A stretch of 64,000 nucleotides of DNA from a virus (IMGVR_UViG_3300035034_002381:1-64000), one strand, 5' to 3'; counted from the stretch's first letter, positions 229-22,802 are shown. Program-made: numbers and translations. The notes: a model not told the origin generated them from the letters alone.

Positions 229-302
229 GGGCCTTTAGCTCAGTTGGTCAGAGCAGTGCGCTCATAACGCAAAGGTCACTGGTTCGAGCCCAGTATGGCC
301 CA
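229..302 (+). tRNA. tRNA with CAT anticodon (Met, fMet or Ile2 type)
   Basis: Hand-folded cloverleaf: acceptor gggcctt/atggccc, D-arm tagctcagttggtcagagc, anticodon loop ctcataa, T-arm actggttcgagcccagt. Confidence 0.75.
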
Positions 303-351
303 CAACATATTCAGATAAGGTTCTGGGTTCGAATCCCAGTCTGAATACAGC

Positions 352-434
352 ACAAAGGCGAAACAGGTATTCGTAGCGGATTGTAACCCCGCTGTCTTTT
401 GACATTGTGGGTTCGAGTCCCACTTGTGCTACAA
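352..434 (+). tRNA. Class II (long variable arm) tRNA, anticodon GTA (Tyr)
   Basis: Acceptor agcacaa/ttgtgct, anticodon loop ttgtaac, variable-arm hairpin tgtc-tttt-gaca, T-arm gtgggttcgagtcccac; 83 nt. Confidence 0.65.
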
Positions 435-439
435 ATAGT

Positions 440-510
440 CATATAGCTCAATTGGTTGGAGCATCACGCTGATAACGTGAAGGTTATAGGTTCGAGTCCT
501 ATTATGACTA
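440..510 (+). tRNA. tRNA-Ile (GAT)
   Basis: Acceptor agtcata/tatgact, D-arm tagctcaattggttggagc, anticodon stem tcacg/cgtga with loop ctgataa, T-arm ataggttcgagtcctat. Confidence 0.75.
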
Positions 511-511
511 C

Positions 512-586
512 GACGCGGATAAGGCACAGGTAGTCTTGACAGTCTGTAAAACTGTTATGTTATGGGTTCGAGTCCCATGCGCGTCA
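512..586 (+). tRNA. Class I tRNA whose anticodon loop reads ctgtaaa (GTA, Tyr-like). It duplicates the anticodon of the 352-434 gene, so its identity is uncertain
   Basis: Acceptor gacgcgg/gcgcgtc, anticodon stem acagt/actgt, T-arm atgggttcgagtcccat. Confidence 0.5.
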
Positions 587-587
587 C

Positions 588-673
588 TGAAGTGTACCCG
601 AGCGGTTTGCAGGGACCAGACTGATATTCTGGGAGTATTTTACTCAACGTGGGTTCGAATCCCATCACTTCAA
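588..673 (+). tRNA. Class II tRNA (Ser/Leu-type body: 3-bp D-stem, long variable hairpin gagta-ttt-tactc). Its anticodon loop reads ctgatat, so the anticodon is uncertain
   Basis: Acceptor tgaagtg/cacttca, anticodon stem ccaga/tctgg, T-arm gtgggttcgaatcccat; 86 nt. Confidence 0.5.
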
Positions 674-680
674 CCATATC

Positions 681-752
681 GCGGGGTGCCTGGAGAGGTT
701 CCAGATCGGGCTCATAACTCGAATTAACGTGGGTTCGACTCCCACTCCCGCA
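681..752 (+). tRNA. tRNA with CAT anticodon (second Met/Ile2-type gene)
   Basis: Acceptor gcggggt/ctcccgc, D-arm ctggagaggttccag, anticodon loop ctcataa, T-arm gtgggttcgactcccac. Confidence 0.6.
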
Positions 753-755
753 ACT

Positions 756-828
756 AGGATAGTAGCTTAGTGGCAAAAGCACAACTTTTACATGGTTGAT
801 ATCGTGGGTTCGAGTCCCATCTATCCTA
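756..828 (+). tRNA. tRNA-Val (TAC)
   Basis: Acceptor aggatag/ctatcct, D-arm tagcttagtggcaaaagc, anticodon loop tttacat, T-arm gtgggttcgagtcccat. Confidence 0.75.
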
Positions 829-867
829 CAACATGGGGGAAGACAAAGGTAAATTTATTGAAGATTT

Positions 868-940
868 GGGGCTGTAGCAAAGTTGGTCTATGCGGTGGAT
901 TGAAGATCCATGGATGTCGGTTCGATCCCGACCGGTCTCA
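868..940 (+). tRNA. tRNA-Phe (GAA)
   Basis: Acceptor ggggctg/cggtctc (three G-U pairs), anticodon stem gtgga/tccat with loop ttgaaga, T-arm gtcggttcgatcccgac. Confidence 0.6.
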
Positions 941-1020
941 CAAGATTAAAAAATAGAAATCATGAAAAAAACATTAGATTATCTTTAAAACCTAAAGATA
1001 TGAGCAATGGCATTGAACAT

Positions 1021-1094
1021 GGTGTACATAGCTTAGTGGTAGAGCATCGTCTTGTGGTGGCGAGGGGCGTGAGTTCGAATCTCATTGTACACCC
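1021..1094 (+). tRNA. tRNA-His (GTG) with the extra 5' G(-1) pair
   Basis: 8-bp acceptor ggtgtaca/tgtacacc, anticodon loop ttgtggt, T-arm gtgagttcgaatctcat. Confidence 0.75.
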
Positions 1095-2714: not shown

Positions 2715-3176
2715 ATGGTAGATTTCAACACAATCACAGAGAAAAACGAATCTGAAGCAAAAGCAAAATTCAGAGAAAATGGTACCGGAGTTAAAATGGG
2801 AACATTTGCTTCTGGTGACGAAAGCAAATGGGAAGATCTAATTAACACAGGTCTTTTCAGTAATCAAGCTATCAAAAACAGAATGCTTGACGTTGCACGC
2901 AGAATTAACACTATGTGTAATGACGAACTTTTAGGTAATCTTGACGTGGCTTTTACTGTTACTGATGCTCGTGATAATAAGGTGGAATTTACCTACATGG
3001 ATATTTATACTTTTTTACGAGCGGCATACCGTTACAGAAGTGAAACTAAGAATTATAGAGAAATGAAAGCTAGAAAAGCTGAACTTGAAAAATTCACTGA
3101 AGAAACTAAGACCGTAAAAGAAAAACGTGCTGAGGCACTCAAGGAACTTAAAGAACTTGAAAAGTCTCTTGCATAA
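2715..3176 (+). CDS. Hypothetical protein with a coiled-coil C-terminus
   Basis: 153-aa ORF with an upstream TAAAACTTT...TATATAA promoter-like motif. Confidence 0.5.
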   Translation: MVDFNTITEKNESEAKAKFRENGTGVKMGTFASGDESKWEDLINTGLFSNQAIKNRMLDVARRINTMCNDELLGNLDVAFTVTDARDNKVEFTYMDIYTFLRAAYRYRSETKNYREMKARKAELEKFTEETKTVKEKRAEALKELKELEKSLA

Positions 3177-3360
3177 AAGTTTCTGTCTCTGGGAGACCTA
3201 ACACTGATGATGACAAGCGTCTTGAAAACCTATTTAATCCATAAACTTGGGAAGAAAATGAGAGTGAGTAACTCGAATGAATCGAATGTATGATTCAAAA
3301 GGTATTGGTAGGTTAATTCTTATCAATACCTCTAAAATTCTTCTTAGAATCCATAAAACT

Positions 3361-3425
3361 TAGCTCATTGGTTGGGCATTTGTATAAGAACAAAAGGAGC
3401 GGTTCAATTCCGTAGACTAGAAGAA
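3361..3425 (+). ncRNA. Degenerate tRNA-like element (D-arm-like tagctcattggttgggc, AT-rich anticodon-like hairpin, T-arm-like gcggttcaattccgt)
   Basis: Hand-folded. It lacks a clean acceptor stem and is preceded by a CTTAGAATCC motif. Confidence 0.3.
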
Positions 3426-3430
3426 TTTAA

Positions 3431-3560
3431 TTGCCGGGTTAGTGTAAGGGTCAACACACGTAAAGTAAACATAGTGAACTTTACGAATCACTTAGAATAA
3501 CTAACTATACAATCCATATGGAGGACGGATAACTGGTTCGAGTCCAGTGCCTGGCACAAA
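3431..3560 (+). ncRNA. tRNA-like module of about 130 nt and a candidate Y-RNA-like RNA. It has acceptor-like ends gccggg/cctggc and a D-arm-like gtgt-aagggtca-acac. A 7-bp stem cgtaaag/ctttacg with a 13-nt loop sits in the anticodon position. A 47-nt insert precedes the T-arm ctggttcgagtccag
   Basis: Hand-folded. It is too long for a tRNA and lies 1 kb upstream of the Ro60 ortholog on the same strand. Confidence 0.4.
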
Positions 3561-3584
3561 TTAAATTGCAGAGTGGTGTAGTGG

Positions 3585-3650
3585 CAGCACACGTAAACGC
3601 CGATTAGTGAAGCATTTACGTTACACTAAAAAATTGGCAAATCTCGTTCA
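3585..3650 (+). ncRNA. Second, related tRNA-like half-module (gcagagt, D-arm-like gtgt-agtggcag-cacac, 7-bp stem acgtaaa/tttacgt with a 17-nt loop). No T-arm follows
   Basis: Shares the D-arm and cgtaaa-stem architecture of the 3431-3560 module. Confidence 0.3.
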
Positions 3651-3789
3651 AAAGAAATTTTCAAATGTAACAACAGAAATTGAAGATGTTGATGAATGGG
3701 TATATTTATATGTAAGAATTTAAAACTTTTTTCAAACTAAAGAATATAAAGAACAATAATACCAATAAAAATTCGACTTAGAATACCTA

Positions 3790-3880
3790 AAACTAAAGTT
3801 TAAATTAGCTCATTGAGCATATTTTTTTTATAAATACGGTCTAGGTTAATCCCTAGAAATTCAAACGTTTAGTCGAATTT
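3790..3880 (+). ncRNA. Degenerate tRNA-like element (acceptor-like gtttaaat/attcaaac, D-arm-like tagctcattgagca, A/T-only anticodon-like hairpin, T-arm-like tctaggttaatccctaga)
   Basis: Hand-folded; preceded by a CTTAGAATACCTAAAAC motif. Confidence 0.3.
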
Positions 3881-3901
3881 TTATTGGTTTTTTAAAATAT
3901 T

Positions 3902-3974
3902 GCGGGGTGGACTGGAGTTGGATCCAGCTTGGTCTCATAAGCCAAATCACGGGAGTTCGAATCTCTCCCCCGCT
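3902..3974 (+). tRNA. tRNA with CAT anticodon (third Met/fMet/Ile2-type gene)
   Basis: Acceptor gcgggg/ccccgc, D-arm ctggagttggatccag, anticodon stem ttggt/gccaa with loop ctcataa, T-arm gggagttcgaatctctc. Confidence 0.65.
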
Positions 3975-4280
3975 ACTTGTTAATAGGCATTTTATCAGTA
4001 ACACTGGAAGTTTTGGCCGAATAAATTAAAAAGTAAAATGTGTGTTCGTGTGTTAGTAAAGAGCTGCACGAATTAAATTTAATAAGTTCTGACTAGTGGT
4101 TTCGGTTTAATAGGGAAAGATACTTACCACTGAAAAAACTAAAATGTATACCCTGTAGATTTTCAATATTTATCTAACTAAATATTGCGTGTTAGAAAGT
4201 TCTAGATTAACTGTGCACAGGTTATTTAGTTCTTATAAATTTTAGAATGCACTTAACAATGTAGCGTTAATCTAAAAAAT

Positions 4281-4353
4281 GCCTCGGTAACTCAGTTGGT
4301 TAGAGTATCTGCTCGACATGCAGAAAGCCACAGGTTCGAATCCTGTTCGGGGT
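4281..4353 (+). tRNA. tRNA-like gene with a G-U-rich acceptor (gcctcgg/tcggggt) and anticodon loop tcgacat (GAC, Val-like; position 33 is C). Its backbone is paralogous to the 10905-10978 gene
   Basis: Canonical D-arm actcagttggttagagt and T-arm acaggttcgaatcctgt. Confidence 0.5.
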
Positions 4354-4528
4354 ACTTATTCTACTTAGAATACTTAAACTTTATAAATTGGTTCGATTCC
4401 AATTTTTATTGGTCTTTTTCTGTCAATTAAGTATCAAATAAATTTTTAATATATTGATTGATTTGAATATATTAAACAACCTCTCTTAGAAAATCTAAGT
4501 TAGAGAAGTTAAATCATCAAAAACAAAA

Positions 4529-6472
4529 ATGATGTCTACAAAAACAAAATCTTTATCAAAAGAAAGAGTTGCCTCTGTTTCAGGAGATAAACCAAGACTC
4601 CCAAGAACTCTTGAAACTCTTCAAGGTTTAAGAACAGCTCAAGGATTATCTGACGCGCAAATTGCGAATATGTTAGATAACGCATTATCAGAAACTTCAA
4701 GTAACCATATTATATATGTTCTTGAAAGATTAATGTTACACATTGGTGATGTGAGTCGACAACACAATATGTTGAAAGAATTGGGAATTAATTCTAAATC
4801 TGGTGGCGCACAAGAACGTGGGGTATTCCGATCTATTTTACGATGGTGGGAAAAAACTTTGCCTGAATCATTTGCAGAAAATCTTCGAGTATTCGCTGAA
4901 TTCTCAGTTTTGGAAAACTTGATGTTTTATGAACTTAAAACTGAAAGAGCAACTGGAAAATTAATTGGAAAGGAAATTTTGTTTCCTATGCCAAGTAAAG
5001 TACATGAATTTCTAGCGAACGAAATTCACAAAAATAGAAATGTGAATCTTATTGCTAAGCATTTACCAAAATATGACACTGGTAAAAGTCGAACCACTAA
5101 GAAAACCATGCATATTAAAGACGGTAAGGATAGTTTCATGTGGAAACTTCCTGAAGGTAAAGCTTGGGTTAAATTAAATGGTGATCTAATCGAAGGAGAA
5201 TCTGTTAAGATTACTCAAGGTGATGTAGTTTCATATCCTCGTGATAAATCTTCACATGTTTTAGAAAAACAAAGATTCGTTAATTCTTGGATTTCTAGTT
5301 TCTGTAAAGTTATGGGATGGTCAATTACTGATTATAACAATTTCCGTAAACAACAAAACACACCGGAACAAAAATTCTCAAGTAAACGTGTTTTAAACAT
5401 GCCGAAATCAGATTTCTGGAAAATGCTTGATGGTTTGACTTCTGGTCAAAGATACAGAGTTTCTAGAATGTTAGATTTCAATGCGGAAAAGTGGGGAGAA
5501 TTACCGAAATGGTATGATTTGTGGGAAGGTAACCAAGAAAAAGTAGCCGATAAACTTCGACAAGCTGCAGCTGATGGTGATACTGAAGCAACAGAAAAAT
5601 TGAAGAAAGAATTCAAGGTTAAATCTACTGGAAAAAACACTGTTGATTTATTGAAAGATATGTTAACAGGTAATCATGACGATAGATTCATTAACAACAC
5701 TTATCAATCTATGATTGAGAATATGGATATTGTTGCGAATGTTTTTCCAGTAATTGATGGTTCCGCATCTATGGATTGCCAAATTGGTGGAGGATGGAGT
5801 CCTCGAAGTTCTCGAAGTTCTACGGATAGACAACTTTCAAATAGAGCTGTCGCATATGCTATGGCAATTGCATTTTCTACTAGAAACCCAGTACCAGGAT
5901 TCCGTAACACGTTCGGATGGTTCTCCAGAAACTTTCACATTGTTGGAAAATCTAAGTATGTGAACAATGCACCTAATCAATACGTTGATTCTGGAAGTTA
6001 TACTAAAAAGGTTAATGAGTTCAATGTTTTATCTGAAACTAATACTTTCACTGAAAACTACTCAAACTTGAGAAAATCTGATCCAGGAGAAATATCATCT
6101 ACAAATATGGGTTCTGTGATTACTCACTTCACAAATTTAGTAGAAACTGGTAAATTTCATGTTGAGGATCTTCCATCTGCGTTACTTTTTATCACAGATA
6201 ATGAAAACAACACAGGAATTAGTCCGAAGGAAGCGTTGGCAATAGCTAACAAAATTGGATGGTCTCCATTGGTTATTTTCTGGGGGTTAACTAAAGTTCC
6301 AAGCAACATGATGAATCAGTATAAGGGAATTCCTAACTGCTTACTTGTTGGAGGATTTAATGAATCAGTACTTTCACAAGTACTTAGGGGTATTAAATCT
6401 GGTTCAGTTGATCCAGAGGATGAAATCTGGAGTATTGTCGAAAATAAAAGATATGCAGTAATTACTGAGTAA
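4529..6472 (+). CDS. rsr: Ro60 (Rsr) ortholog: an N-terminal helical TROVE-like region plus a C-terminal von Willebrand factor A domain with a MIDAS motif
   Basis: MIDAS DGSASM (human Ro60 has DVSASM), followed by NRAVAYAMAIAFSTRN (Ro60 ASTVAAAMCMVVTRTE). Then LLFITDNENNTG (Ro60 FIVFTDNETFAG) and NCLLVGGFNESVLSQVLRGI (Ro60 MLDMCGFDTGALDVIRNF). The 647-aa size is about 400 aa of helical domain plus about 240 aa of vWA. Confidence 0.75.
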   Translation: MMSTKTKSLSKERVASVSGDKPRLPRTLETLQGLRTAQGLSDAQIANMLDNALSETSSNHIIYVLERLMLHIGDVSRQHNMLKELGINSKSGGAQERGVFRSILRWWEKTLPESFAENLRVFAEFSVLENLMFYELKTERATGKLIGKEILFPMPSKVHEFLANEIHKNRNVNLIAKHLPKYDTGKSRTTKKTMHIKDGKDSFMWKLPEGKAWVKLNGDLIEGESVKITQGDVVSYPRDKSSHVLEKQRFVNSWISSFCKVMGWSITDYNNFRKQQNTPEQKFSSKRVLNMPKSDFWKMLDGLTSGQRYRVSRMLDFNAEKWGELPKWYDLWEGNQEKVADKLRQAAADGDTEATEKLKKEFKVKSTGKNTVDLLKDMLTGNHDDRFINNTYQSMIENMDIVANVFPVIDGSASMDCQIGGGWSPRSSRSSTDRQLSNRAVAYAMAIAFSTRNPVPGFRNTFGWFSRNFHIVGKSKYVNNAPNQYVDSGSYTKKVNEFNVLSETNTFTENYSNLRKSDPGEISSTNMGSVITHFTNLVETGKFHVEDLPSALLFITDNENNTGISPKEALAIANKIGWSPLVIFWGLTKVPSNMMNQYKGIPNCLLVGGFNESVLSQVLRGIKSGSVDPEDEIWSIVENKRYAVITE

Positions 6473-6491
6473 TCTTAATTTTCAAATTACT

Positions 6492-6527
6492 AAGGAGAGG
6501 CATTTTTGCCTCTCCTTTTTTTATGTT
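6492..6527 (+). terminator. Rho-independent terminator (aaggagaggca-ttttt-gcctctcctt plus TTTTTTT)
   Basis: Perfect 11-bp stem followed by a T-run, immediately after the Ro60 ORF. Confidence 0.8.
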
Positions 6528-6576
6528 TAAAACTATATCAATCTTAGATATATAATACAAATAAATTAAATTAAAT

Positions 6577-9276: not shown

Positions 9277-9362
9277 AGAGGATGCGGTAATGGTGGTTAT
9301 TACAGTATCTTGGAAAGGTACCGATCGTTTATTCGGTCAGGGTTCGACTCCCTCATCCTCTG
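9277..9362 (+). tRNA. Class II tRNA-Ser (GGA)
   Basis: Acceptor agaggatg/catcctct, anticodon stem gtatc/ggtac with loop ttggaaa, variable arm ccgatcgtttattcggtc, T-arm agggttcgactccct. Confidence 0.65.
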
Positions 9363-9493
9363 CTATGTTCTTCTTAGAATAACTAATTTATGTAAATGTG
9401 AGTTCGAATCTCATCAAATGCTTTTAGCATCTGTAGCCAAATGGTTAGGCAATATACTTGAAATATATAACAAACGATTAGAAGAACAACATG

Positions 9494-9566
9494 CTTCCAT
9501 AGTATAAAGGTTCATTATTCCTGTTTTGTAATCAGGCGATATCGGTTCGATTCCGATTGGGAGCTC
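9494..9566 (+). tRNA. tRNA-Thr (TGT)
   Basis: Acceptor gcttcca/tgggagc, anticodon loop tttgtaa, T-arm atcggttcgattccgat. Confidence 0.6.
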
Positions 9567-9714
9567 AATGAATATGATGTTTATTTAGATCCTAAAAATG
9601 ATTATCTTATTGGTATAGATAGTAAAAAAATTGAAAAGGTCGAAGAATTGTATAATGTGCGTAATAATAGACAAGGATAATTTATCTTGGAATGATATTC
9701 AAAATAAAATAAAT

Positions 9715-9795
9715 GTTTCAGTGGTGGAATGGTAGACACGTCGGTCTTAGGAACCGATGCCGAAAGGCGTGAGAGTTCGAGTCTCTCCTGGAATA
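9715..9795 (+). tRNA. Class II tRNA-Leu (TAG), canonical architecture
   Basis: D-arm gtg-gaatggtaga-cac, anticodon stem tcggt/accga with loop cttagga, variable arm gccgaaaggc, T-arm gagagttcgagtctctc. Confidence 0.65.
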
Positions 9796-9796
9796 C

Positions 9797-9876
9797 ACTC
9801 TGGTGGATTAGGTAAATTGGTACAGCTAAACGGCTTAGACCCGTATCCCTTCTGGGTTCGAATCCCAGTCAGAGTA
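9797..9876 (+). tRNA. Atypical 80-nt tRNA-like gene, family member 1. The anticodon-like hairpin is acgg-cttagac-ccgt (TAG). There is no variable arm, and a 7-nt insertion separates the acceptor from the 3-bp D-stem
   Basis: Acceptor actctgg/tcagagt, conserved block tggattaggtaaattggtacagctaa, T-arm ctgggttcgaatcccag. Confidence 0.5.
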
Positions 9877-9881
9877 CAAAT

Positions 9882-9961
9882 GCTCCTGTGGTTTATGTAA
9901 ATTGGCACAGCTAAGCGGCTTAAACCCGCAACCTTTATGGGTTCGAGTCCCATCAGGAGTA
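9882..9961 (+). tRNA. Atypical 80-nt tRNA-like gene, family member 2; anticodon-like hairpin gcgg-cttaaac-ccgc (TAA)
   Basis: Acceptor gctcctg/caggagt, conserved block tggtttatgtaaattggcacagctaa, T-arm atgggttcgagtcccat. Confidence 0.5.
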
Positions 9962-10056
9962 CAAAAGTTTATCAACGTCTTGAGTCAAGTTGGATGATGA
10001 CAAAAAGGCTAACGGCAGAAGTGAATCCATCGCACTGTGTTACATAAACTTTATCT

Positions 10057-10129
10057 GGCCAGGATTCTCAATTGGACGGGACTCTGTCTTCTAAACAGAT
10101 GTTTGTGGGTTCGAATCCCATCTTGGTCT
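10057..10129 (+). tRNA. tRNA-Arg (TCT)
   Basis: Acceptor ggccagg/cttggtc, anticodon stem tctgt/acaga with loop cttctaa, T-arm gtgggttcgaatcccat. Confidence 0.6.
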
Positions 10130-10135
10130 CTAAAC

Positions 10136-10209
10136 GCAGGTATACCTAAGTGGTTTAAAGGAGCGGATTGCAAACCCGTTATTCATTGGTTCGAATCCAA
10201 TTACCTGCT
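10136..10209 (+). tRNA. tRNA-Cys (GCA)
   Basis: Perfect acceptor gcaggta/tacctgc, anticodon loop ttgcaaa, T-arm attggttcgaatccaat. Confidence 0.7.
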
Positions 10210-10214
10210 CACTT

Positions 10215-10297
10215 GGAAGGTAACTTGATGGTGATAGAGGTAGTTTGCTAAACTACTGGCCGTTTACTCGGTCGAGGTTCGATTCCTCTGCCTTCCG
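10215..10297 (+). tRNA. Class II tRNA-Ser (GCT)
   Basis: Acceptor ggaaggt/gccttcc, anticodon stem gtagt/actac with loop ttgctaa, variable arm ggccgtttactcggtc, T-arm gaggttcgattcctc. Confidence 0.7.
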
Positions 10298-10301
10298 CTA
10301 T

Positions 10302-10379
10302 GCTCCTGTGGATTATGTAAAAGCACAGCTAACACCTTGAGGAGGTGATCCTTTGTGGGTTCGAGTCCCGCCAGGAGTA
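10302..10379 (+). tRNA. Atypical tRNA-like gene, family member 3; anticodon-like hairpin cacc-ttgagga-ggtg (GAG)
   Basis: Acceptor gctcctg/caggagt, conserved block tggattatgtaaaagcacagctaa, T-arm gtgggttcgagtcccgc. Confidence 0.5.
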
Positions 10380-10404
10380 CAAAGAAGCAAAGAGTTAGTT
10401 AGGT

Positions 10405-10479
10405 TAGACTGGCTTGTTATGTGGTGAAATTGGTAAACGCGAGCGCTTTGGTGCTTAGTAACCTTAACACTTCTTATTT
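10405..10479 (+). ncRNA. Partial tRNA-like element: a Leu-type D-arm gtg-gtgaaattggtaaac-gc plus a hairpin, with no T-arm. It abuts the next tRNA
   Basis: Shares its D-arm sequence with the 10788-10899 element. Confidence 0.3.
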
Positions 10480-10553
10480 GCTGAGTTAGTATAGTCGGTT
10501 TATTACGATACCCTGGTACGGTATTAACACCAGTTCGATTCTGGTACTCAGCT
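10480..10553 (+). tRNA. tRNA-Thr (GGT)
   Basis: Perfect acceptor gctgagt/actcagc, anticodon stem atacc/ggtat with loop ctggtac, T-arm accagttcgattctggt. Confidence 0.7.
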
Positions 10554-10565
10554 CATGAAAAATAT

Positions 10566-10645
10566 GCCTCTGTGGATTATGTAAATTGGCACAGCTAACG
10601 GTTTCAAACTCCGATCTTTTATGGGTTCGAATCCCATCAGAGGCA
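10566..10645 (+). tRNA. Atypical tRNA-like gene, family member 4; anticodon-like hairpin cgg(t)-ttcaaac-(t)ccg (CAA)
   Basis: Perfect acceptor gcctctg/cagaggc, conserved block tggattatgtaaattggcacagctaa, T-arm atgggttcgaatcccat. Confidence 0.5.
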
Positions 10646-10661
10646 CAAGTAGGAGAAATTT

Positions 10662-10746
10662 AGTCCAGTGGCGAAACAGGTATACGCACAAGATTTAAGC
10701 TCTTGCTTCCATTGAGGAATTGCGGGTTCGATTCCCGCCTGGATTA
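10662..10746 (+). tRNA. Class II tRNA-Leu (TAA), canonical architecture
   Basis: Acceptor agtccag/ctggatt, D-arm gcg-aaacaggtata-cgc, anticodon stem caaga/tcttg with loop tttaagc, variable arm ttccattgaggaa, T-arm gcgggttcgattcccgc. Confidence 0.65.
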
Positions 10747-10787
10747 CTAAGTTAGTACGGGTTCGATCCCCGTCTTGGCTACTAAAT

Positions 10788-10899
10788 TTGACCGTGGTGA
10801 AATTGGTAAACACACCCTTAAATCAGGGAGTATGAGAATATGTACTTGAAGCTGACGCAGAACATCATACATATGTAGGTTCGAATCCTATCGGTCGAA
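10788..10899 (+). ncRNA. 112-nt tRNA-like RNA with a roughly 45-nt extra stem-loop (atatgta...tacatat) inserted before the T-arm
   Basis: Acceptor ttgaccg/cggtcga, Leu-type D-arm gtg-aaattggtaaa-cac, anticodon-like ccc-ttaaatca-ggg, T-arm gtaggttcgaatcctat. Confidence 0.4.
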
Positions 10900-10904
10900 C
10901 AAAT

Positions 10905-10978
<74 letters not shown>

Positions 10979-11325
10979 CTATCTAAAACTTTATTCAATT
11001 TCCATAATATAATGTGTAACTAAACTTTATAGAAATGGAAAAAATACTAATGTCTGAAATTTTGACTTATGACAACTTCGACGACGGTTTACCTGAAGAA
11101 TATGAATTTGTCGATTCTGAACAAACATATTTTGATGGTGAAAAAGGCTTTGTTAATATCGAAGCTATTATCAGAAGAGAATCAGACTCACAATTTTTAA
11201 AGTAAAATACACCGATTATGGAAAAGGTGAAAATGATCTTATGGAAAGTGTGGGCGAACCTGTAACTCAAAAATCCAAAACAATTTTCTACTATGTAACT
11301 CAAAAATCCAAAACAATTTTCTACT

Positions 11326-19213: not shown

Positions 19214-21007
19214 ATGAAACTTTTAAACGAACAAAAGATCTATGATGAGTGGGCTCCTATGCTAGAGGAGGAAACTTCAATCAAAGATTCTTCAAAATTG
19301 GGATGGATGACTAAATATTGTCACTACCATTCATTAAATGAAGCATTCACTGCACCTGCAGCTGGATTGCTTAACACGCCAGGTATGGGTAATGTAACTC
19401 CTGCTGGAGCTGCTGCCGGTGGTGCTAATGCATTCTACGGAAGTACTACTACTGGTTCAGGAGATAAATTCCCTTCATTATTGCCACTATCTATTCAGGT
19501 AGCTGCAAGAACTGTAGGATTTGATATCGTTCCTGTTATTCCTATGAACGGACCTTCGGGGGTTCTTACATACATGGATTATGTCTATGCTGGTGGAAAA
19601 GGAGCATTCGGAGCACCTCCAGGTGCTGCAGGTGCTGCAAACCCAGGTCTTAACGCTTACGCTGACAAGCCGTTAGTATTCAAAATCCAACTTGTTGGAG
19701 ATGAGAAAACTGCTTTCGATGCTGCTGCTGCGGGTGATGAATTCTTATTTGCTTCTGGTGCACTTGCTGCAACTGGAAACACACTACGTGTTGCTAAAAT
19801 CGGTCCTTCTAGAATCGACGGTCACTCTATTTTTAGAGTAATTGGAGAATCTGGTGATGCTGATGCGACTGGCGGTGCAGCTGCTGCTGTAGCGACAACT
19901 CTTACATCGCCACAATCTATCACATTGGCTTCTGTATTTACAGGAACTGCTGCGATGATTACTGCGGCTGGTGCTTTAGTTGATGCTGCTGATTCAGTAG
20001 TTAATCGTCCAGAACTTGTTAAAGCTCTTGAAGATCACGTTCAAGGTTTTGCTGGTGCAGGTCCAAACGATGATGAAGCATGGTCAGGAAATGCGACTGA
20101 TGGTACTGTATCTTACGAACCAATGCGAAGAGGTGTAGGTGAAGAGCAGTACTTCAGAACTATGGGACTTCAAGCTTTCACGAAATTCATTGAAGCTGAA
20201 ACTTTCCAAGTTGCTGCTAATGTTACTACAGAACAAATTCAAGATTTACAACGTCAGTATGGAATCGATGTGATTGCAATGATCGAGAACTCATTAGTAA
20301 ATGATATCTCTCAATCTATTAACAAGCACATTCTTTCTAGAGCTTTCGCTCTTGGATGGGGTGCAAACCTTACATTCAGAGATGTTGAAGGTGCAAACCT
20401 TAACCTTGAATTGGTAAACACTGGAACTGGTGTTACTGCAACTCCTGCTTACATTGATAAGACTGGAGTAGGTACTGCATCTGTATATCCTGCTTTCCAA
20501 GAATTTGCTGGAGCTGCTGCTGCTGCATCATTGGAAAACCAAGCAACATTCCAACGAAGAGTATATTCTAAAGTACTTGCTGCTGGAAACGTTGTTACTC
20601 AAAGAGGACGTAGAGGACCTGCAAACTTCATTGTTACTAACCTTCAGTTAGCGACAGCGTTGCAAGATTCTGCACAATTCTCTTGGGCACCAATGGCAAA
20701 CACCATTAACCAAAACAACGGTTCGCTTTACCCAGTGGGTACTGTAGCCGGAATGACTGTTTATGTAGATCCTAACATGGGATTCTCTGATAACAGAATT
20801 CTTGTTGGACGTAAAGGTGCTGATGAAGAACCAGGACTTAAATTCATGCCTTACTTAATGGCTGAATCAATCCAAACAATTGCTGAAGGTACAATGGCTC
20901 CGAAAGTTGCCGTAAAATCACGTTATGCTTTAGTTGAAGCTGGACACCACCCAGAAACAATGTACTTTACTATTGCAGTAAATGTACCTGTAGGTGGATT
21001 AGTATAA
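19214..21007 (+). CDS. Major capsid protein
   Basis: 597-aa Ala/Gly-rich protein directly after the protease/scaffold gene, followed by a strong terminator, with codon usage typical of highly expressed virion genes. Confidence 0.6.
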   Translation: MKLLNEQKIYDEWAPMLEEETSIKDSSKLGWMTKYCHYHSLNEAFTAPAAGLLNTPGMGNVTPAGAAAGGANAFYGSTTTGSGDKFPSLLPLSIQVAARTVGFDIVPVIPMNGPSGVLTYMDYVYAGGKGAFGAPPGAAGAANPGLNAYADKPLVFKIQLVGDEKTAFDAAAAGDEFLFASGALAATGNTLRVAKIGPSRIDGHSIFRVIGESGDADATGGAAAAVATTLTSPQSITLASVFTGTAAMITAAGALVDAADSVVNRPELVKALEDHVQGFAGAGPNDDEAWSGNATDGTVSYEPMRRGVGEEQYFRTMGLQAFTKFIEAETFQVAANVTTEQIQDLQRQYGIDVIAMIENSLVNDISQSINKHILSRAFALGWGANLTFRDVEGANLNLELVNTGTGVTATPAYIDKTGVGTASVYPAFQEFAGAAAAASLENQATFQRRVYSKVLAAGNVVTQRGRRGPANFIVTNLQLATALQDSAQFSWAPMANTINQNNGSLYPVGTVAGMTVYVDPNMGFSDNRILVGRKGADEEPGLKFMPYLMAESIQTIAEGTMAPKVAVKSRYALVEAGHHPETMYFTIAVNVPVGGLV

Positions 21008-21116: not shown

Positions 21117-22802
21117 ATGAACACTTCAGTCAAAGATATTATAAAAAACGTAAAATCCACCAAAGGTTTAGCAGTAAAAATATCAAATTCAGAAAGTCTA
21201 AATAAAGAACTTTTAGAATTAACCAAATACCTACCAACAGACTCTAGTATATCTGAGCGCATTTATAATATCTTAAATAATATTGATGTACAAAGTCTTT
21301 GTATTTGTGGTGACACATTACCATTCATTAAAATTTCCAAAGGTTACAAAACTTCGTGTGGTAATAAAGAATGTAAGTCGCGAACACGGAGTAATATTAA
21401 TAAAGAATCCAGTAAGAAAATAGACTGGGGCGAATCGATCAATAAACAACAAAAAACCAATTTACAAAAATACGGTTATGTTTCTAATCTTGCATCACCT
21501 AAAGAACGAGAAAAACATAAAGTTATTCTTAAAGAATTGACTGGATATGAACACCCATTACAGAATCCTGAATCTAAAAAGAAAAGACATAACACTTGTA
21601 TAAAAAATCATGGTACATTAAATTTCATCCATTCAAATAAATCAATACAAACGTTACAAGCAAAATATAATACCACTGCCACTAATTGTGCTCAAATACC
21701 CGAAATTCAAGATAGATCTGCCAAAACCCAATCTATAAATGCTGATAAAGCTTTATATCAAAAAATTGATAAAATAAATAAAACTATAATAGATCTTAAT
21801 AAAACAAATGCTAATATTGAGTGTGTGGGTTGTGGTCGTATTATGAATATACATCGGCAAGCACTCAATTATTATATTCGAAATTCTATTGACAATTGTT
21901 GGTCTTGCAACCCTGATTTTTCACCATTTGCCAGTAACAAAGAAAAGATGATTGTTACATGGCTCACTGATATAGGTATCACAAATATTGACACAAATCG
22001 CCGGAGATTTGGTGGTAAAGAAATAGATATTTTCTTAAATGATTATAACCTAGGAATTGAATTCAATGGCACATATTGGCATAGTGAATTACACAAAGAA
22101 AAAAATTACCATTTAAATAAAAAAACATATATTGAGAACTTGGGTTTCAAGTTGATTAATGTTTGGGAAGATGATTGGGAAGATGATATAAAACGTAATA
22201 TAATTCAAAGCAGAATTAAAAATTTAATAAACCTAAATCACCGCAAAATATATGGGCGTAAATGTCAGATAGTTCAAATATCTAACAAAGAAGCTAAAGA
22301 ATTTTATACCAATAATCATATTCAAGGTCATGCTATATCAGAAATTAACTACGCATTAGTATATGATAATGAAATTGTTTCAGTCATGAGCTTTTCTAGT
22401 AAAAATAGATTTTTCATTAAGAAAAATAGGGATAATGAAATAGAGTTGACTAGATTTGCAAATTTGATAGGTGTAAGTGTTTTAGGTGGTTTCTCTAAAC
22501 TATTCAAACATTTTTTGAAAAATAATGACCATGATACCATTATTTCATTTGCAGAATTTGATTGGACTGATGAGACTAATAATGTTTATCTTATGAATGG
22601 TTTTAAATTTTTAGGGAATTCTGGACCATCGTATTCATGGGTTGTTAATGGAAAACGGTTTTCTAGATTTAACTTTTCTAAGCAAAAATTAATCAAAGAA
22701 GGTTATGATAAGAATAAAACAGAAGTCGAAATAATGCACGAAAGAAAATATTATCGAGCTTGGAATAGTGGTAACTTAAAATTTATTTATAATAAATTAT
22801 AA
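21117..22802 (+). CDS. Free-standing homing-endonuclease-like protein: two Cys4 zinc fingers, a Vsr/DUF559-type (PD-(D/E)xK-like) nuclease core and a C-terminal putative DNA-binding region
   Basis: CICGDT...CGNKEC and CVGCGR...CWSCNP zinc fingers. The core IDIFLNDYNLGIEFNGTYWHSELH resembles the Vsr FVDGCFWHGH motif. The gene is inserted between the capsid gene and a recoded copy of the capsid gene 3' end. Confidence 0.55.
   Translation: MNTSVKDIIKNVKSTKGLAVKISNSESLNKELLELTKYLPTDSSISERIYNILNNIDVQSLCICGDTLPFIKISKGYKTSCGNKECKSRTRSNINKESSKKIDWGESINKQQKTNLQKYGYVSNLASPKEREKHKVILKELTGYEHPLQNPESKKKRHNTCIKNHGTLNFIHSNKSIQTLQAKYNTTATNCAQIPEIQDRSAKTQSINADKALYQKIDKINKTIIDLNKTNANIECVGCGRIMNIHRQALNYYIRNSIDNCWSCNPDFSPFASNKEKMIVTWLTDIGITNIDTNRRRFGGKEIDIFLNDYNLGIEFNGTYWHSELHKEKNYHLNKKTYIENLGFKLINVWEDDWEDDIKRNIIQSRIKNLINLNHRKIYGRKCQIVQISNKEAKEFYTNNHIQGHAISEINYALVYDNEIVSVMSFSSKNRFFIKKNRDNEIELTRFANLIGVSVLGGFSKLFKHFLKNNDHDTIISFAEFDWTDETNNVYLMNGFKFLGNSGPSYSWVVNGKRFSRFNFSKQKLIKEGYDKNKTEVEIMHERKYYRAWNSGNLKFIYNKL

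Follow-up and report, generated by a model that had tools for sequence, protein, structure and literature searches.

Does a phage gene whose product resembles Ro60, and which lies directly behind a row of RNAs resembling transfer RNAs (tRNAs), form one working unit with those RNAs? The question is posed by the viral sequence IMGVR_UViG_3300035034_002381:1-64000, of which the whole stretch of 64,000 nucleotides (nt) was analyzed and is called the window below. An open reading frame (ORF) at 4529-6472 encodes a protein of 647 amino acids (aa), and the gene order is p153, an array of tRNA-derived RNAs, then this ORF. Ro60 and its Y RNAs are a conserved, poorly understood RNA-surveillance system, in which Ro60 binds Y RNA at its outer surface and the ends of misfolded RNA in its cavity. 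An earlier note on the window had read the protein as a Ro60 ortholog and the RNAs as candidate Y RNAs. In the reading preferred here, p153, the RNA array and a Ro60-like protein would form a conserved phage module in which the protein binds the RNAs as Ro60 binds Y RNAs; belief and doubt are evenly balanced for this proposal. The linkage between gene and RNAs is tight and evolutionarily deep.

Protein architecture and family

The protein has the following parts.

4529-6472, plus strand: Ro60-like DUF2828-family protein, 647 aa, with helical repeats, an S4-like insertion and a vWA domain bearing an adhesion site dependent on metal ions (MIDAS)
5087-5248 (about aa 187-240), plus strand: S4-like insertion, a beta-rich region within the N-terminal part
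About aa 400-647, plus strand: vWA/MIDAS domain

The ORF is present as the earlier note had described it and carries the motifs DGSASM (D410, S412, S414), SSTNM (T525), FITDNENNTG (D557) and VGGFNESV. In 34 aligned homologs the MIDAS residues D410, S412, S414, T525 and D557 do not vary, and hhalign pairs the motifs with DVSASM, GGTDC, FTDNET and CGFD of Ro60. The Ro60 side of this comparison consisted of the human, frog and Deinococcus proteins; the human sequence used differs from PDB 9nen at one position. The family aligned with Ro60/Rsr at 86% probability (E 4.7e-6, 230 columns), residues 289-624 corresponding to Ro60 288-529. No profile-level match to Ro60 was obtained for the N-terminal 280 residues, and homology over the whole protein was thus not found.

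An AlphaFold2 model of the protein (mean predicted local distance difference test score 83, predicted template-modeling score 0.76) was compared with known structures using Foldseek. The nine best PDB matches were all Ro60 proteins (E 1e-5 to 3e-4), the closest being Ro60, Rsr and the Ro60 of phage phiLo. The fold is predicted to be of the Ro60 type, with a helical repeat domain and a vWA domain with intact MIDAS. The helical N-terminal domain of about 400 aa proposed before agrees with the predicted helical repeats, but it is not purely helical, being interrupted by the beta-rich insertion.

Sequence searches led to a different family. The protein had no significant Pfam match of any kind, TROVE and vWA included; for TROVE (PF05731) there was no match at E≤1 for the window protein and none at E≤10 for 34 relatives. 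Matches to vWA families were obtained for 8-10 of the 34 relatives and to vWA_Ro60 for one. Searches of PDB and Pfam sequences with the protein and its family profile returned no Ro60 or TROVE match, while PHROG 850, 'RNA-binding protein', matched residues 343-643 (8e-16). There are 95 unannotated homologs with 38-99% identity, all metagenomic. A full profile search brought in 1493 relatives, the distant ones being proteins of about 500 aa with Pfam DUF2828 and DUF7788, which are reached at E 1e-15 to 1e-19. By hhalign the family matches such proteins over the full length (probability 100%, E 1.5e-42, 445 columns) and shares their MIDAS motifs; the Pfam models DUF2828 (PF11443) and DUF7788 (PF25043) gave no direct match to the window protein. 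Judged by these profile comparisons, the protein is a member of the DUF2828/DUF7788 family. Taken together, the fold matches, the partial alignment with Ro60 and the full-length alignment with DUF2828 proteins indicate a DUF2828/DUF7788 protein of Ro60-like architecture and not a Ro60 ortholog. The earlier assignment thus stands for the architecture and falls for the orthology.

Unlike other DUF2828/DUF7788 proteins, the clade of the window protein carries the S4-like insertion, residues ~188-240 having no counterpart there in the hhalign alignment. An S4 RNA-binding domain (PF01479) was recognized in this region in six of 34 relatives (best E 5.4e-5) and not in the window protein, of which residues 206-240 gave a weak profile match to ribosomal protein S4 (E 1.3). 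Among cultured phages, megablast with the region found nothing, and tblastn only 21-30% identical DUF2828 or 'RNA-binding' proteins of Klebsiella and Campylobacter phages. DUF2828 is widespread in phages, bacteria and plants. To our knowledge it has no assigned function, and it therefore offers no mechanism.

Structured RNAs upstream of the gene

In line with the earlier note, no ORF on either strand exceeds 47 aa in the 1.35 kb between p153 and the ORF (3177-4528). Its most complete RNA, Module A, is made up as follows.

3433-3556, plus strand: Module A, an A-type tRNA-like RNA, 122 bits with covariance model R1
3433-3439 with 3549-3555, plus strand: acceptor stem, 7 bp
3442-3445 with 3454-3457, plus strand: D stem
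3473-3477 with 3488-3492, plus strand: helix P, AGTGA/TCACT
3493-3498, plus strand: invariant UAGAAU, directly after helix P
3513-3525, plus strand: small hairpin
3532-3548, plus strand: T arm
3556, plus strand: discriminator A, followed by CAA
3568-3627, plus strand: Module B, a truncated second copy of Module A with only the 5' acceptor strand, the D arm and the 5' part of helix P

Module A was correctly described as having acceptor, D and T arms with extra stems in place of the anticodon arm. Its fold has a z-score of -2.5, and 3433-3556 has no Rfam match at E≤10, including tRNA, Y_RNA and YrlA. Sequences related to it were found by nhmmer upstream of the homologous gene in many of the fetched loci (numbered with the prefix L). 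With eight sequences in a plain MAFFT alignment, RNAalifold already detected compensatory changes for both the acceptor stem and the D stem. A covariance model with five helices, R1, was built here. Elements of 135-165 nt upstream of the gene reach 54-136 bits with it in the window, L002/L016, L008, L014/15, L017/18, L019, L021-L024, L032 and L036, whereas ordinary tRNAs, matched over about 95 nt, stay at 17-47 bits. In a model-fitted alignment of 17 sequences, 96.2% of paired cells were complementary, versus 43-55% with slid partners; 19 of 24 base pairs had changes on both sides, compensatory changes occurred in all five helices, and none of 500 shuffles reached the observed percent paired or covariation score. 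The A-type RNAs are structured and under selection.

Their common architecture, from 5' to 3', is a 7-bp acceptor stem formed from both ends, a D arm, a conserved CGUAAA, hairpin P, UAGAAU, an A-rich spacer, a 3-bp hairpin with a variable 7-nt loop, a T arm (GGUUCGAnUCC) and the discriminator A. Hairpin P, UAGAAU and the second small hairpin take the place of the anticodon loop. Hairpin P occurs as AGUGA/UCACU, AGAAG/CUUCU, UGAAAG/CUUUCA or AGAGA/UCUCU. The discriminator is followed by CCA in about half of the members and by CAA in several others, including the window. A reduced A-type without D arm stands 30-170 nt before the gene in L004-L007 and L026-L028, a partly freshwater clade, and also in L003 and L001.

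Two neighboring modules had been thought to share cgtaaa stems. The second module (3566-3650) is a remnant, however, the stem is present only in close relatives, and the helix found throughout the family is AGTGA/TCACT. Accordingly, the pairing cgtaaagt/actttacg was rejected as an A-type anticodon arm; it is also sterically incompatible with helix P as a pseudoknot, because just 2 nt would have to span 8 bp.

In the 99%-identical locus L009 (contig Ga0307983_1000172) an intact second A-type copy is located at 3722-3868. Compared with L009 3722-4155, window 3568-3722 lacks 272 nt, and lost with them by deletion are the second A-type copy's 3' half and the beginning of a small ORF (about 97 aa). 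From this alignment Module B is a deletion remnant of that copy, and the number of tRNA-like RNAs varies at strain level between window and L009, by gain or loss.

Since A-type RNAs look like interrupted tRNAs, they might be functional tRNA genes with a novel insert of about 45-55 nt in the anticodon loop, removed perhaps with help of the neighboring protein to give decoding tRNAs. As in intron-containing tRNA genes, many A-type homologs fit the Rfam tRNA model (36-54 bits; gathering score 29) when a single extra stretch of about 45 nt is allowed within the anticodon loop, and CCA is encoded in about half of them. L036 438-582 even has a full 5-bp anticodon stem, and removal of its insert would leave the loop AUGAAGA with anticodon GAA. 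Most members, however, retain only two or three Watson-Crick pairs, as against the 5-bp stem and 7-nt loop of a tRNA. ARAGORN calls no A-type homolog a tRNA, and Module A has no Rfam tRNA match at E≤10. The candidate anticodon loop is not conserved, reading ATATGGA in the window but ATTTGGA in its 99%-identical relative L009, and the D arm is wholly absent in the freshwater clade. Within the RNA it is the insert that is conserved best, whereas typical introns behave the other way round, and no splicing or circularization machinery was identified. This explanation suits one member, L036 438-582, and not the A-type family, for which it is improbable.

Around and between these RNAs lie two tRNAs and a second kind of unit, called U-type.

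3335-3428, plus strand: U1, closing helix AAAUUCUUCU/AGAAGAAUUU (10 bp plus 2), UAGAAU at 3345-3350
3761-3888, plus strand: U4, 18-bp closing helix, UAGAAU at 3779-3784, a degenerate tRNA-like core, then a U run
3901-3976, plus strand: tRNA with anticodon CAT and an atypical D arm (ARAGORN; Rfam 28.6 bits, just below the gathering score)
4281-4355, plus strand: tRNA-Val(GAC), canonical (ARAGORN; Rfam 61.6 bits)
4364-4418, plus strand: U5, CUUAGAAU motif and a lone T-arm-like hairpin (4385-4405), with the end AUUUUUAUUGGUCUUUUU as in U4
4481-4505, plus strand: leader mini-unit, 5-bp helix CUCUCU/AGAGA with a loop beginning UAGAAA, 24 nt before the ATG
9365-9483, plus strand: tentative extra unit, closing helix GUUCUUCU/AGAAGAAC and UAGAAU

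Five copies of C[U/A]UAGAA are present in 3343-4491 (1.15 kb), where about 0.3 would be expected. At 46 of 81 upstream motifs from 21 loci, the exact complement of the preceding 6 nt was found 15-180 nt downstream (8.8% at control positions). The extended closing helices measure 6-18 bp and comprise 37 different sequences, in all of which the 5' strand ends in CU directly before UAGAA. U-type closing helices, like the A-type RNAs, are structured and under selection. They enclose a small hairpin, a tRNA core without acceptor stem, or sometimes a complete tRNA. The bases preceding the motif must be transcribed, because they covary with a distal partner. TAGAAT was also considered as part of a sigma-70 promoter and rejected: no promoter-like site was found at any plus-strand motif, and the total was not above that of shuffles.

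U1 encloses D-like, anticodon-like and T-like hairpins, that is, a tRNA core without acceptor stem, as do L002 5749-5849 and L014 1360-1459; in these the Rfam tRNA model matches only at its positions ~5-66, and the U1 ortholog in L008 (1336-1435) scores 37.9 bits at model positions 9-63 only. U4 has a fold z-score of -5.7, and its ortholog in L008 (1582-1702) encloses an intact tRNA-Gln(UUG) of 62.6 bits. U5 is similar to sequences in L003, L004 and L005 (blastn). A motif of the leader type is found 11-146 nt before the start codon at nearly all homolog loci; in L032 and L033 the leader helix brackets the start codon. No significant fold or conserved element was detected in the 300 nt between the two tRNAs (3977-4280).

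Both tRNAs had been noticed earlier, and the one with anticodon CAT is borderline. It has an unusually long D stem (ACUGGAG..CUCCAG-like) and is almost identical in the window and L025 (3625-3699), with Rfam scores of 28.6 and 37.3 bits, though the Ro60-like proteins of the two are only about 50% identical. At the equivalent position L008 has a standard-scoring tRNA-Met (1714-1786).

Could the modules be no more than tRNA pseudogenes in decay, together with hairpins that arose by chance in an AT-rich spacer and have no function? In favor are the remnant status of Module B, the degenerate core of U4 in the window, and the unremarkable z-scores of several upstream folds. The compensatory changes in all five helices over 17 sequences, the invariant UAGAAU, and the conservation of position and strand over loci of 38-99% protein identity speak against decay. 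This account is effectively refuted for the A-type RNAs and the closing helices and scarcely credible for the array; it holds for Module B and may hold for other single units such as U5.

The RNAs were also compared with those of known Ro60 systems. YrlA or Y_RNA type RNAs, which the earlier note had expected, were not recovered: the YrlA (RF02553) and Y_RNA (RF00019) models had no match in 3100-4600 at E≤10, none in the window at gathering score, and in seven other loci none at E≤0.1. The A-type RNAs follow the order of a tRNA, with an acceptor stem from the ends, and not the permuted order T arm, acceptor, D arm. That order occurs at only two places, and U-type units otherwise run closing stem, D, anticodon, T. 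At L025 3729-3830 the 3' tRNA half (T arm and 3' acceptor strand) precedes the 5' half (5' acceptor strand and D arm), and the Rfam YrlA score is 34.9 bits. Window 9365-9483 has the permuted, YrlA-like order of T arm, acceptor-like hairpin, D arm and anticodon-like hairpin; the unit is tentative, because its YrlA match is local only (16 bits, 9397-9450) and its minimum-free-energy z-score is 0.33. In placing the 3' half before the 5' half, both also resemble permuted tRNA genes. For a true Ro60 (Rsr/TROVE) ortholog with YrlA-type Y RNAs there would thus be the fold matches, the aligned MIDAS motifs and these two elements. The L025 score, however, is half of the gathering score (69), the dominant RNA type is not permuted, and no TROVE match exists among 34 relatives of a protein whose family is DUF2828. 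That explanation is very improbable.

Linkage of gene and RNAs and its interpretation

Among 25 distinct loci with enough upstream sequence to be assessed, 20 have an A-type RNA at most 1 kb upstream on the same strand, at protein identities of 38-99%. The position of the protein directly downstream of tRNA-like RNAs, first seen in the window, is thus that of a gene with conserved RNA partners. The linked loci include a clade without canonical tRNAs upstream. A pattern scan of IMG/VR (CTTAGAAT, 30-60 nt, GGTTCGANTCC) returned 80 loci, 11 of them with a gene of the family or p153. By R1, A-type RNAs were found directly upstream of a P0120-like gene in L091 (two copies, 78 bits), and also before a P0196-like gene in L080 and before a P0205-like gene with true Pfam DUF2828 and DUF7788 in L114.

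In L114 (12620-13364) and L080 (4633-4975) hairpin P is followed by ACAGCAA instead of UAGAAU. As ACAGCAA is also repeated in the leaders of the DUF2828-type genes of both loci, the motif changes together with the protein clade.

These features lead to the proposed mechanism, in which the protein would bind A-type and U-type RNAs in the manner of Ro60 with Y RNAs. Binding of RNA is suggested by the S4-like insertion, by the covariation of motif and protein clade, by the module copy in the leader, and by analogy with Ro60 and Y RNAs. The helix-plus-UAGAAU module would be the recognition element of the protein. The tRNA-shaped part may undergo the processing usual for tRNAs (RNase P, CCA addition) or make contact with host factors that handle tRNA. 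The module in the gene's own leader could serve feedback control or be a cleavage point that frees the mRNA from the RNA array. A role in surveillance, protection or processing of the phage's large set of tRNAs and tRNA-like RNAs during infection is speculative, and quality control, decoy and repair, suggested in the earlier note, are candidate roles only. The wider proposition, held with somewhat more doubt than confidence, is that DUF2828/DUF7788 represents a second, unrecognized Ro60-like branch that in huge phages forms ribonucleoproteins with new tRNA-derived RNAs (helix with UAGAAU or ACAGCAA) and also reads its own mRNA leader.

Several observations weigh against the proposed module. 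The likeness to Ro60 depends on a predicted structure, for which Foldseek gave low global TM-scores (0.35-0.47), and sequence similarity is confined to the vWA half. A locus may have as many as nine motif-bearing units (L003), some units enclose ordinary tRNAs, and a general processing signal accounts for this no less well than a protein-binding site does. In L076 the RNAs are positioned downstream of the gene (R1). Among the other 72 loci of the pattern scan, L094 alone has A-type-like RNAs and no recognizable family gene. The only cultured-phage relatives, a 'DUF2828 protein' of Klebsiella phage KP2025 and an 'RNA-binding protein' of Campylobacter phage CP81 (both 21-23% identical), are encoded in or beside tRNA arrays that contain no obvious A-type RNA; in KP2025 an ordinary tRNA-Arg lies 10 nt before the gene.

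On the 172-kb viral contig L094, the A-type-like RNAs are located at 303-467 and 5134-5279 (47 and 57 bits). The second is followed after 60 nt by an unrelated ORF (at least 513 aa), which has no match to the Ro60-like family, DUF2828 or any Pfam model and may represent a different or very divergent protein partner. In KP2025 (L040 4449-4880; PP919962.1 140087-140518) GenBank lists a 'tRNA-Arg' of 432 nt that runs into the beginning of the DUF2828 coding sequence. What the sequence shows is an ordinary tRNA-Arg(TCT), about 75 nt long and with CCA encoded, whose end is 10 nt ahead of the ribosome-binding site, and the 432-nt feature therefore looks like an annotation artifact.

The processing signal just mentioned is the strongest competitor, though on balance unlikely. 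Here helix-plus-UAGAAU units would be processing or cis signals of a polycistronic operon of tRNAs and tRNA-like RNAs, similar to the RNase III stems that bracket ribosomal RNAs; A-type and U-type RNAs would be operon products with roles of their own, and the DUF2828 protein would be co-transcribed only and have another target, or be a processing cofactor instead of a stable ribonucleoprotein partner. Closing helices around true tRNAs (L008 1582-1702, tRNA-Gln; L001 5440-5555, tRNA-Gly), the number of units per locus, the unit that always lies between RNA array and start codon, the U-rich tracts that often follow 3' arms, and the distant DUF2828 genes within ordinary tRNA arrays of cultured phages are all consistent with it. 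Yet the canonical tRNA arrays of the window (229-1094 and 9277-10979) are free of the motif save for one unit, and the RNAs keep with the gene in phages without a nearby tRNA array. The motif switches together with the protein clade, and the protein has a predicted Ro60-like fold and an S4-like domain, both of RNA-binding types. The two explanations are partly compatible, because the signal might be read by the protein itself.

Known systems, phage context and significance

Ro60 with adjacent tRNA-like Y RNAs is known in bacteria and phages (PMC4201824, PMC12135203, PMC7824862), the phage pairs including those of mycobacteriophages, CcrColossus, Bacillus phage G and Thermus phage phiLo (same sources). 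A Ro/Y pair in a phage is thus no new idea, and the earlier view of the pair as unusual for a phage is superseded. Like Ro60/Rsr systems, among them those with YrlA RF02553 and phiLo Ro60 with Yrl1/Yrl2, the window is predicted to encode a helical repeat and vWA/MIDAS protein, with RNAs directly upstream on the same strand and often two or more per locus. As in Y RNAs and YrlA, the phage RNAs contain tRNA-like D and T arms, and U-type units have a stem formed from the 5' and 3' ends. Unlike Ro60/Rsr, the window protein lacks the TROVE signature, carries the S4-like insertion and has about 110 more residues, and no link to PNPase is known for the phage module. Unlike YrlA and Y_RNA, the A-type RNAs keep tRNA order, and the RNAs fail both Rfam models. 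The conserved element is a helix with UAGAAU, and not the bulged Ro-binding helix or CGAA motif of Ro60-bound Y RNAs.

A further comparison is offered by Yrn1 of Deinococcus radiodurans, in which the order of D and T arms relative to the 5' end and the intervening stem-loop differ from YrlA (PMC4201824). As read from that source and compared by description only, its topology of closing stem, D arm, anticodon-like stem-loop and T arm equals that of the U-type units U1, L002 and L008; unlike Yrn1, U-type units have UAGAAU beside the helix and some enclose complete tRNAs. Within DUF2828/DUF7788, the phage members of L114, L080, KP2025 and CP81 likewise stand beside tRNA or tRNA-like genes. Phage T4 species 1 and 2 (rnaC, rnaD) are small stable RNAs of unknown function, similar to those of the window in having partial tRNA-like features and belonging to a tRNA array in a phage with gp23-type capsid. 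They were rejected as A-type homologs, R1 giving only a T-arm-sized match of 13.6 bits in rnaC, and no DUF2828 gene is annotated in the 8-kb T4 tRNA region examined.

The locus is part of a tRNA-rich region, with 21 tRNAs in the first 11 kb of the window (ARAGORN). The capsid protein (19214-21007) is gp23-like and closest (about 40%) to those of Lak megaphages of Prevotella and an uncultured 462-kb phage, and contigs bearing relatives of ORF 4529-6472 reach 447 kb. The upstream neighbor is given below.

2715-3176, plus strand: p153 (153 aa), conserved upstream neighbor gene, with a small globular N-terminal part and a long C-terminal helix

No informative match to p153 was found by sequence or fold, and no genes for RNA ligase, RtcB or PNPase were seen in the 15 kb flanking ORF 4529-6472. 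Between two tRNA arrays lies the gene for a 486-aa SPFH/Band 7 domain protein (1201-2661, PHROG 11908), a 31% identical homolog of which is found downstream of the Ro60-like gene in L003. A 561-aa ORF resembling homing endonucleases (21117-22802, PHROG 3339, HNH or restriction-endonuclease-type matches) directly follows the major capsid gene. The first tRNA array (229-754: Met, Tyr, Ile, Tyr, Ile, Met) has the same anticodons repeated by local duplication, some copies being unusually long (84-89 nt). An amber-suppressor tRNA (anticodon CUA, labeled 'Pyl' by ARAGORN) is present in the relatives L002 (10009-10081), L016 and L017. An alternative genetic code has been reported for Lak phages (PMC8346664). 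With the Lak-like capsid and the CUA tRNA, this suggests that some relatives may read TAG as sense; the window ORFs appear intact under code 11.

What appears to be new is that DUF2828 proteins are Ro60-like, that there are A-type and U-type RNA families with UAGAAU, and that the two are linked; none of this was found in Rfam 15 or the searchable literature. Should closing-helix-plus-UAGAAU units instead be processing signals, they would be a new kind of signal of phage tRNA operons. If the linkage reflects a physical complex, it would connect the Ro60/Y RNA field with DUF2828 and give that family its first function. It would also establish a new family of structured RNAs, whose short invariant recognition motif lends itself to mutation and to exchange between clades, and a phage Ro/Y-like system devoted to the phage's own tRNA world. 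Such a system would make tractable the question of why huge phages invest in tRNA mimics, the candidate reasons being tRNA quality control, protection from anticodon nucleases, and control of tRNA-array processing.

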